The notes beneath the pieces are model-generated. The model searched no databases and was not told where the DNA came from. It saw only the letters and a program-made list of their open reading frames with translations. Source: Ignavibacteria bacterium (GTDB lineage: Bacteria > Bacteroidota > Ignavibacteria > Ignavibacteriales > Melioribacteraceae). From it: a stretch of DNA of 30,554 nucleotides. Positions 11,487 to 12,494 of this stretch are shown piece after piece. Made by a program: the position numbers and the translations under genes. Within the stretch, counting starts at the first letter, position 1. The number at the start of each line of letters is the position of its first letter. Location of the stretch: NCBI GenBank assembly GCA_011049495.1, contig DSBF01000034.1, positions 1 through 30,554 on the forward strand, in the 5' to 3' direction.

Positions 11487-11993
11487 TTAAGCGTTGAAAA
11501 GTTGATGAATTTCCATACCACGTCGACGAGCCATACTTGCCGCATCTATAAGACTGAGTAAACCATTTAAAGTTGCTTTAACTTGATTATGCGGATTAGA
11601 AGAACCAAGTGACTTTGTTAGAACATCTTGAATACCAGCAGATTCAAGAACTGCTCGCACACCGCCGCCGGCAATAAGTCCCGTACCGGGTGAAGCCGGT
11701 TTCAATAAAACCTTACCAGCGCCAAATTTTCCGAGTATTGGATGCGGAATTGTACCTTTTACAACAGGAACTTTATATACATTTTTCTTTGCATCATCAA
11801 TACCTTTTGAAATTGCATCGGTAACTTCATTTGCTTTTCCTAAGCCGACACCAACGTGACCATTACCGTCACCAACGACAACAATCGCATTAAAGCTGAA
11901 TCTTCTACCACCTTTTACAACTTTAGCAACACGATTAATGTGAACAACTTTTTCTTTAAGATTTTCGATTCCGGATACTTTTTTGTACCTCAA
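11487..11993 (-). CDS. rpsE: 30S ribosomal protein S5
   Basis: [45 protein letters not shown] start with SD AAGGAG 7 nt upstream. Confidence 0.99.
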
Positions 11994-12049
11994 TTTCTAG
12001 CTCCTTGCTTACAATAAATTTTCGATTCGTCTAAAATTTCTAAATAGCC

Positions 12050-12123
12050 TGGCTGCCGGGAGAGGATTCGAACCTCTACAGACGCCTCCAAAGGGCGTAG
12101 TCCTACCGTTAGACGACCCGGCA
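12050..12123 (-). tRNA. tRNA-Gln (anticodon UUG) with encoded CCA
   Basis: Reverse complement folds as TGCCGGG-TC-GTCT-AACGGTA-GGAC-T-ACGCC-CTTTGGA-GGCGT-CTGT-AGAGG-TTCGAAT-CCTCT-CCCGGCA-G-CCA (74 nt). Acceptor, anticodon and T stems are perfect; U1-A72 pair and G73 discriminator are present. Confidence 0.97.
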
Positions 12124-12128
12124 ATGAA

Positions 12129-12494
12129 TTAAATTTTCAATCCGCCCTCGCGGGCACCATCGGCAAGTGCTTTTACTCGTCCATGGTATCTATAAATATT
12201 TCTATCAAACAGTGCTGTTTTTATTCCTGCTTCTATTGCTTTTTTTGCGGCTAATGTTCCAACTACTTTACTTTCTTCTGTTTTTGATTTTGCATTTTTA
12301 ATTTCTTCTGCAATTTCTTTTGATAAAGAAGAAACAGAGAATATTGTTTTGCCGGCATTATCGTCAATAAATTGCACATAAATTTGGTTGAGACTTCTGA
12401 ATACATTCATTCTTGGTCTTTCGGCAGTTCCCCAAATTTTCTGCCTAACTCTAATTTTCTTTTTAGCTTTTTGTAATTCTGTTTTTCTTAACAT
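12129..12494 (-). CDS. rplR: 50S ribosomal protein L18
   Basis: [37 protein letters not shown]. Confidence 0.99.

Follow-up and report, generated by a model that had tools for sequence, protein, structure and literature searches.

A tRNA-Gln(UUG) gene between rplR and rpsE in the spc operon of Ignavibacteria, probably matured from the ribosomal protein transcript

Several bacterial tRNA genes are transcribed together with genes for the translation machinery. In the tufB operon of Escherichia coli (thrU-tyrU-glyT-thrT-tufB) and in metY-rimP-nusA-infB, one growth-rate-controlled promoter drives both tRNA and protein synthesis. In mitochondria, excision of tRNAs from polycistronic RNA is said to create the mRNA ends, a tRNA punctuation that Ojala and colleagues reportedly described in 1981. 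In the case of E. coli secG-leuU, a tRNA is co-transcribed with a protein gene, and RNase P parts the tRNA from the upstream mRNA (Mohanty & Kushner 2008, PMC2241853). A second, endonucleolytic cut falls in an A/U-rich region after the CCA, and the upstream mRNA is left without a protective 3' end (PMC2241853). Here we analyse a tRNA gene placed inside the spc operon, whose gene order is among the most conserved in bacteria. In our full-text literature search, no account of a tRNA at the rplR-rpsE junction turned up.

The window, by which we mean the whole stretch of DNA analysed (30,554 nucleotides), belongs to a metagenome-assembled genome (MAG) of 592 contigs, estimated to be 93.5% complete with 4.8% contamination, and of 34.6% G+C. 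ARAGORN finds a single tRNA in these 30.5 kb, a tRNA-Gln with anticodon ttg, and the Rfam match to RF00005 is full length and scores 59.7 bits, where the gathering score is 29 (Table 1). Around rplR and rpsE, Pfam places L6, L30, L15 and SecY in the canonical spc order. At least five genes lie 3' of the tRNA, namely rpsE, rpmD, rplO and secY, all recognised by Pfam, and a fifth open reading frame that is probably map. The rplR-rpsE junction measures 135 nt, against -1 to 24 nt for the ten other spc junctions of the window, and it is the only one of the eleven to hold a tRNA. A preliminary description of this DNA had proposed an intact, CCA-bearing tRNA-Gln(UUG) on the operon strand, separated by TTCAT from the rplR TAA and by 56 nt from the rpsE TTG, with a Shine-Dalgarno sequence proper to rpsE. 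ARAGORN and Rfam agree on the gene and its coordinates are correct, the two spacers match base for base, and the GGAG is present.

Table 1. Coordinates of the rplR-tRNA-rpsE region in the window
Feature	Coordinates	Strand	Basis and remarks
rplR (ribosomal protein L18)	12129..12494	(-)	stop TAA 12131-12129; ORF list; PF00861 131.6 bits
5' leader TTCAT, 5 nt, from rplR stop to tRNA +1	12124..12128	(-)	sequence; base -1 = U
tRNA-Gln(UUG), 'type B'	12050..12123	(-)	71-nt body 12053-12123 + encoded CCA 12050-12052; ARAGORN, RF00005, covariation
3' trailer = rpsE 5' UTR, 56 nt, A/U-rich, weakly structured	11994..12049	(-)	GGAG Shine-Dalgarno 12001-12004
rpsE (ribosomal protein S5)	11487..11993	(-)	TTG start 11993-11991; ORF list; PF00333 + PF03719

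Read on the operon strand, the tRNA has U1-A72 and G73, followed by the encoded CCA. When the tRNA is aligned across 30 genomes of the same order, 99.6% of the pair cells hold standard pairs, and 10 of the 21 pairs have changed on both sides. None of 500 shuffles matches the observed pairing and covariation, and slid registers drop to about 50% pairing. The arms of the cloverleaf form in a fold of the 191-nt context, and the z-score of the whole-region fold (-0.68) indicates no structure beyond the cloverleaf.

The gene appears to be needed as well as intact. Among the 31 tRNAs that ARAGORN finds in the MAG, Gln(UUG) occurs at the rplR-rpsE junction only, so that the copy count called for by the preliminary description is one; a single Gln(CUG) lies on contig C551. 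CAA represents 73% of Gln codons genome-wide (long open reading frames), and 21 of the 27 Gln codons in the six ribosomal protein genes flanking the tRNA. In three closed genomes, G003 (same genus), G021 and G028, the covariance model recovers the embedded gene as the only tRNA-Gln of any anticodon, the next matches being tRNA-Glu, Arg and Asn, while G012 and G153 carry one Gln(CUG) besides it. Because it is the sole Gln(UUG) gene of the MAG and the sole tRNA-Gln of three closed relatives, and because CAA is the main Gln codon, the embedded tRNA is, on this comparative evidence, a working and essential gene and not a relic.

One genome departs from this description. In G092 (C46:24847-24917; 62% G+C locally), the embedded tRNA has a Gln-type body with U1-A72 and G73, and its anticodon loop, CUGUGGA, reads GUG (His). 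A search of that assembly found no other Gln(UUG) gene and no canonical one, and its six spc ribosomal protein genes contain no CAA and 29 CAG. Either the GUG anticodon is a base error of the MAG, or the anticodon has shifted under a relaxed need for CAA decoding.

The distribution of the arrangement was examined at several depths. Within the window's order, tRNA-Gln(UUG) lies just upstream of rpsE in all 30 genomes with an S5 match (4 families, 26 genera). For the class, S5 coordinates were compared with tRNA-model coordinates in an even sample of 151 genomes from 27 families. The tRNA adjoins rpsE in all sampled members of 13 of the 27 families, or about half of the class (f1, f3, f4, f5, f7, f11, f13, f16, f18, f25, f26 and f27 from the class sample, and f2 from the order sample); in the 14 other families of the class sample, the tRNA is elsewhere and none was found beside rpsE. 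When the sequences themselves are checked, 50 of 50 loci from embedded families have the tRNA in the interval from the L18 stop to the S5 start; none of 20 loci from non-embedded families does, and there rplR and rpsE are 15 to 82 nt apart. Beyond the class, 30 genomes from 24 further families of the phylum have no tRNA between rplR and rpsE, with gaps of 6 to 119 nt; in relatives without an embedded tRNA, the gap thus spans 6 to 119 nt and is mostly below 50 nt.

A wider scan covered about 185,000 species genomes with a narrow pattern, which requires an L18-like C-terminus and, at most about 30 nt beyond it, the T-arm of a tRNA, and gave at least 120 matches. Among the matches listed, 35 loci are beside rplR/rpsE, all of them tRNA-Gln(UUG), and the other 85 are in unrelated places. 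Twenty-five of these 35 are in records labelled Ignavibacteriota, including Ignavibacterium album and Melioribacteraceae; the remaining listed loci are in six unclassified Bacteroidota, one Ca. Kapaibacterium and three bins labelled Chitinophagaceae or Synechococcus. The last three (L222, L279 and L290, in bins labelled Synechococcus sp., Chitinophaga pinensis and Chitinophagaceae) are near-identical, Ignavibacteria-like rplR-tRNA-rpsE loci whose S5 is 75% identical to that of the window, and the bins are probably mislabelled or contaminated. One locus, L278 (uncultured Ignavibacteriaceae MAG, about positions 330 to 740), has two tRNAs between rplR and rpsE: Gln(UUG) and, some 66 nt later, a near-copy with anticodon CUG. 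Within the operon, the gene has been duplicated in tandem and one anticodon has changed.

In a tree of six proteins (805 columns), all embedded genomes fall inside one clade of 56 rows (SH-aLRT 98), which also takes in five families without an embedded tRNA. The free tree needs six changes, at least three of them forced by well-supported branches. Monophyly of the embedded set is not rejected by an AU test (p = 0.26), and a single gain, with or without later losses, is compatible with this outcome. As far as these sequences tell, the placement is old and dates back to the ancestor of one large branch within Ignavibacteria.

Two kinds of tRNA-Gln(UUG) can be distinguished in the class. The first (type A) is canonical and E. 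coli-like, 72 nt long, with acceptor UGGGGCG and D arm GCCAAGCGGUAAGGC; it is free-standing, elsewhere in the genome, in non-embedded genomes. The embedded tRNA (type B) does not have this canonical body (72 nt, GCCAAGCGGUAAGGC D arm). It is 71 nt long, with acceptor UGCCGGG, D stem GUCU/GGAC and a variable loop of 4 nt. Its D stem is identical to that of the clade's tRNA-Glu, and its body resembles the clade's Gln(CUG) gene. The anticodon UUG, U1-A72, G73 and G10 are present in the sequence and the alignment. The identity set of E. coli tRNA-Gln includes G3-C70, and the 3-70 pair is C-G in the embedded tRNA (set quoted in PMC3927822).

A model of type A scores at least 84 bits in every non-embedded family, apart from a weaker match of 73.6 bits in G036 (f10). 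In embedded genomes this model finds no type A gene, the best match (at most 70 bits) being the embedded tRNA itself. Since type A and embedded type B never co-occur within the sample, the canonical gene has been replaced by the embedded one, and not supplemented. Family f6 holds exceptions to the general rule: G147 (C1:2186217-2186287, L124) and G045 (C28, L180) carry a free-standing type B, so that type B also exists outside the spc operon. In the same family, G066 has no type A match, and the other genomes carry type A.

The preliminary description had taken U1-A72 as the element recognised by GatCAB. The pair is indeed there, but it does not imply the GatCAB route, as the window's genome encodes both GlnRS (614 bits) and GatB. 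The idea that the type or position of the tRNA tracks the charging pathway was dropped: GlnRS is present or absent in both groups, with no correlation. It is found in embedded families f1, f3, f4, f5, f13, f16, f18 and f25 and not in f7 and f11; among non-embedded families, it is found in f8, f12, f14, f20 and f24 and not in f6, f9, f10, f21 and f22. The GlnRS match of G091 (C1:44563-45645) contains four in-frame TGA codons and covers model positions 1 to 362 only; it may be a broken gene or reflect a problem of sequence quality.

How the tRNA is transcribed is the next question, and signals were sought on both sides of the gene. Sigma-70-like sites around the tRNA are at background, with 4 observed and 3.9 expected from shuffles, for a consensus from which that of Ignavibacteria may differ. 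The scan found no terminator on the operon strand beside the tRNA. The Bacteroidota-type motif TAnnTTTG, which may not be the consensus of Ignavibacteria, does not occur on the operon strand between 11900 and 13100. These scans bear out the preliminary description, in which no promoter or terminator had been seen to flank the tRNA.

Across the clade (50 loci), the leaders between the rplR stop and the tRNA are 4 to 184 nt long, with a median of 10; they reach 25 to 85 nt in f5, f7, f11 and f18. Within the window's order they are mostly 4 to 11 nt, too short for a promoter to fit between the genes. The upper extreme comes from L038 (G039:C7), where the apparent distance of 184 nt from the L18 stop to the tRNA is far above that of every other locus. 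The base at -1 is U (T in the DNA) in 38 of the 50 loci, and U is favoured at this position in RNase P substrates. CCA is encoded in just 12 of the 50, so that the relatives need CCA addition.

On the other side of the gene, the trailers are short, A/U-rich and nearly unstructured, with a conserved GGAG 7 to 8 nt before the S5 start; in the window, the trailer has a minimum free energy of -7.7 kcal/mol and no hairpin followed by a U-run. The rpsE start is TTG in 24 of the 30 order-level genomes, always 7 to 8 nt after GGAG, and ATG, GTG and TTG are used about equally in non-embedded relatives. Family f7 has longer trailers (83 to 89 nt in L034, L035, L036 and L050) that share a conserved A/T-rich block of approximate sequence GATTTTTAATTTTTTTTTATATATATTTGTAA. 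Within the block lies TATATTTG, a match to the Bacteroidota -7 consensus TAnnTTTG, and in f7 alone the block may serve rpsE as an internal promoter.

The enzymes that the maturation of such a tRNA would call on are largely found in the window's genome. It encodes the RNA of RNase P (248 bits), RNase E/G, RNase Y and an enzyme of the CCA-adding family. For RNase Z, the family model stays below threshold (75 bits against a cut-off of 293), with matches to metallo-beta-lactamases only.

Four metatranscriptome runs from sludge and reactors contain the stretch, and the evidence they provide consists of contigs without read ends, in which DNA carry-over is possible. In runs X1 and X2, contigs of 2882 and 1607 nt cover distal genes, rpsE and all of the trailer and enter the tRNA, ending at 12097 in its conserved core. 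In X7, a contig of 227 nt (12094-12320) joins the 3' end of rplR and the leader to 30 nt of the tRNA, where the tool asks for 31. Another strain is represented in X2 by a contig with an L18-like C-terminus (K-F-stop) and the tRNA 19 nt later. There is no rplR-side contig in X1, X2 and X5, and such gaps prove nothing. In these same three runs, depth ranges from 38 to 710 in the tRNA bin and from 6.6 to 10.7 over rpsE, and the tRNA bin is 6- to 28-fold as deep as its flanks, with the reservation that tRNA k-mers are common to related strains; in X7, the depth of the flanks varies widely between bins. Contigs and depth together fit a co-transcript plus a stable tRNA that accumulates.

Co-transcription followed by RNase P excision is the best reading of these data, because flanking signals are lacking, the enzymes are encoded and contigs bridge both junctions. 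The sole tRNA-Gln(UUG) would be made as part of the long spc ribosomal protein transcript, with no transcription signals of its own. RNase P would cut at the 5' end of the tRNA, predicted to fall 5 nt beyond the stop codon of rplR. Within the A/U-rich trailer, the cut would be the work of an endonuclease (RNase E/G or RNase Y, possibly an RNase Z-like enzyme), and the 3' end would be trimmed to the encoded CCA, or completed by CCA addition in relatives that do not encode it. Excision would divide the transcript in two, rplN...rplR on one side and rpsE...secY... on the other, the latter keeping its own Shine-Dalgarno sequence. We give this reading, which agrees with the preliminary proposal that the tRNA matures from the polycistronic mRNA, a probability of about three in four. 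The co-transcript itself is supported but not proven, and any effect of the split on mRNA stability is inferred.

Alternatively, the tRNA may form an independent or additional transcription unit, served by a promoter inside the coding sequence of rplR (or rplF) and including or not rpsE and the distal genes. The supply of tRNA would then be independent of the main spc promoter. Such a promoter would account for the fact that a single tRNA gene presumably must yield far more RNA copies than a usual mRNA, and for the depth of the tRNA bin far above its flanks, though the stability of tRNA explains the latter too. The promoter consensus of Ignavibacteria may differ from those scanned, and rplR does contain a sigma-70-like site at 12367-12340 (TTGACG, 16 nt, AATATT). 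However, sites of this kind are no more numerous than in shuffled sequence, and TTGACG coincides with the conserved I-D-D codons of L18. The f7 block suggests that internal promoters may arise at this junction, but the window has no TAnnTTTG on the operon strand in the region scanned, the short leaders exclude an intergenic promoter in its order, and contigs from RNA libraries join rplR to the tRNA. An internal promoter is therefore unlikely in our opinion, though worth keeping in mind.

A different view is that the position itself has been selected for regulation. Cleavage by RNase P would be modulated by ribosomes that terminate 5 nt upstream, would give the proximal and distal halves of the spc mRNA different stabilities and would couple Gln-tRNA supply to ribosome synthesis. 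The tRNA is kept at this place in every sampled genome of 13 families, none of which was found to have the canonical tRNA-Gln gene, and on physical grounds a ribosome at the rplR stop would be expected to mask the first acceptor-stem bases. Once RNase P has cut the E. coli secG-leuU transcript, the upstream mRNA decays and its half-life is below 30 s (PMC2241853). The length of the leader, however, is not conserved (4 to 184 nt, and 25 to 85 nt in four families), sister lineages thrive with a canonical junction of 15 to 82 nt and a free-standing tRNA, and the free tree suggests several losses or replacements of the arrangement. The competition between terminating ribosomes and tRNA folding or RNase P, put forward in the preliminary description, finds no support, as a leader as short as 5 nt belongs to the window's order and not to the clade as a whole. 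Selection of the position for regulation thus seems quite improbable.

Lastly, although the genome is a fragmented MAG (592 contigs, 4.8% contamination), we practically dismiss an assembly error, contamination by a foreign contig or a tRNA pseudogene dating from an integration event, because closed genomes share the arrangement, as do 50 of 50 relatives that were assembled independently and checked by sequence, compensatory changes keep the cloverleaf of what is the sole Gln(UUG) gene, and the tRNA has high depth in RNA libraries.

What would follow for the cell depends on the mode of transcription. Should the gene lack its own promoter, the cut is unavoidable, as the main Gln codon is read by this tRNA alone. 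The locus offers a natural test case for the effect of RNase P cleavage inside a long essential mRNA on its two halves. A more ambitious proposal can be built on this: in about half of Ignavibacteria, the only CAA-reading tRNA would be obtainable solely by cutting the spc mRNA, which would make RNase P indispensable for processing the mRNA of an essential operon; the cut would give the L14...L18 part and the S5...SecY part unequal lifetimes or yields and would tie Gln-tRNA supply to ribosome production, the replacement by the Glu-like type B being part of the adaptation. Taken as a whole, we find this proposal speculative and rather doubtful. Independently of it, a stable RNA gene fixed in a clade within so conserved a gene order is a useful lineage marker for Ignavibacteria, and the mutual exclusion of embedded type B and free-standing type A records the clean replacement of an essential tRNA gene.

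The arrangement belongs to the known class of mixed tRNA-mRNA operons, in which co-transcription of the tRNA and its excision by RNase P are the textbook mechanism. The closest studied case is secG-leuU, where the tRNA is likewise on the same strand as a protein gene. There, however, leuU is the last gene and is followed by a Rho-independent terminator, whereas the tRNA described here, known from sequence, is internal, with at least five genes downstream and no terminator. In the tufB and metY operons, the tRNAs come first in the transcript, and other gene copies make them redundant; here the tRNA is in the middle of the operon and is the only gene for its anticodon. As in mitochondrial punctuation, excision would generate both the end of the preceding mRNA and the start of the following one, but the tRNA occupies only one of eleven junctions and would leave a 56-nt UTR with a Shine-Dalgarno sequence, and the arrangement is not genome-wide. 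Punctuation of the organelle type was accordingly rejected as a description of the window, where the one tRNA in 30.5 kb leaves ten spc junctions tRNA-free. Compared with the canonical spc operon (rplN...rplR-rpsE-rpmD-rplO-secY), finally, gene content and order are identical, and the difference lies in the 135 nt, tRNA included, that separate rplR from rpsE.
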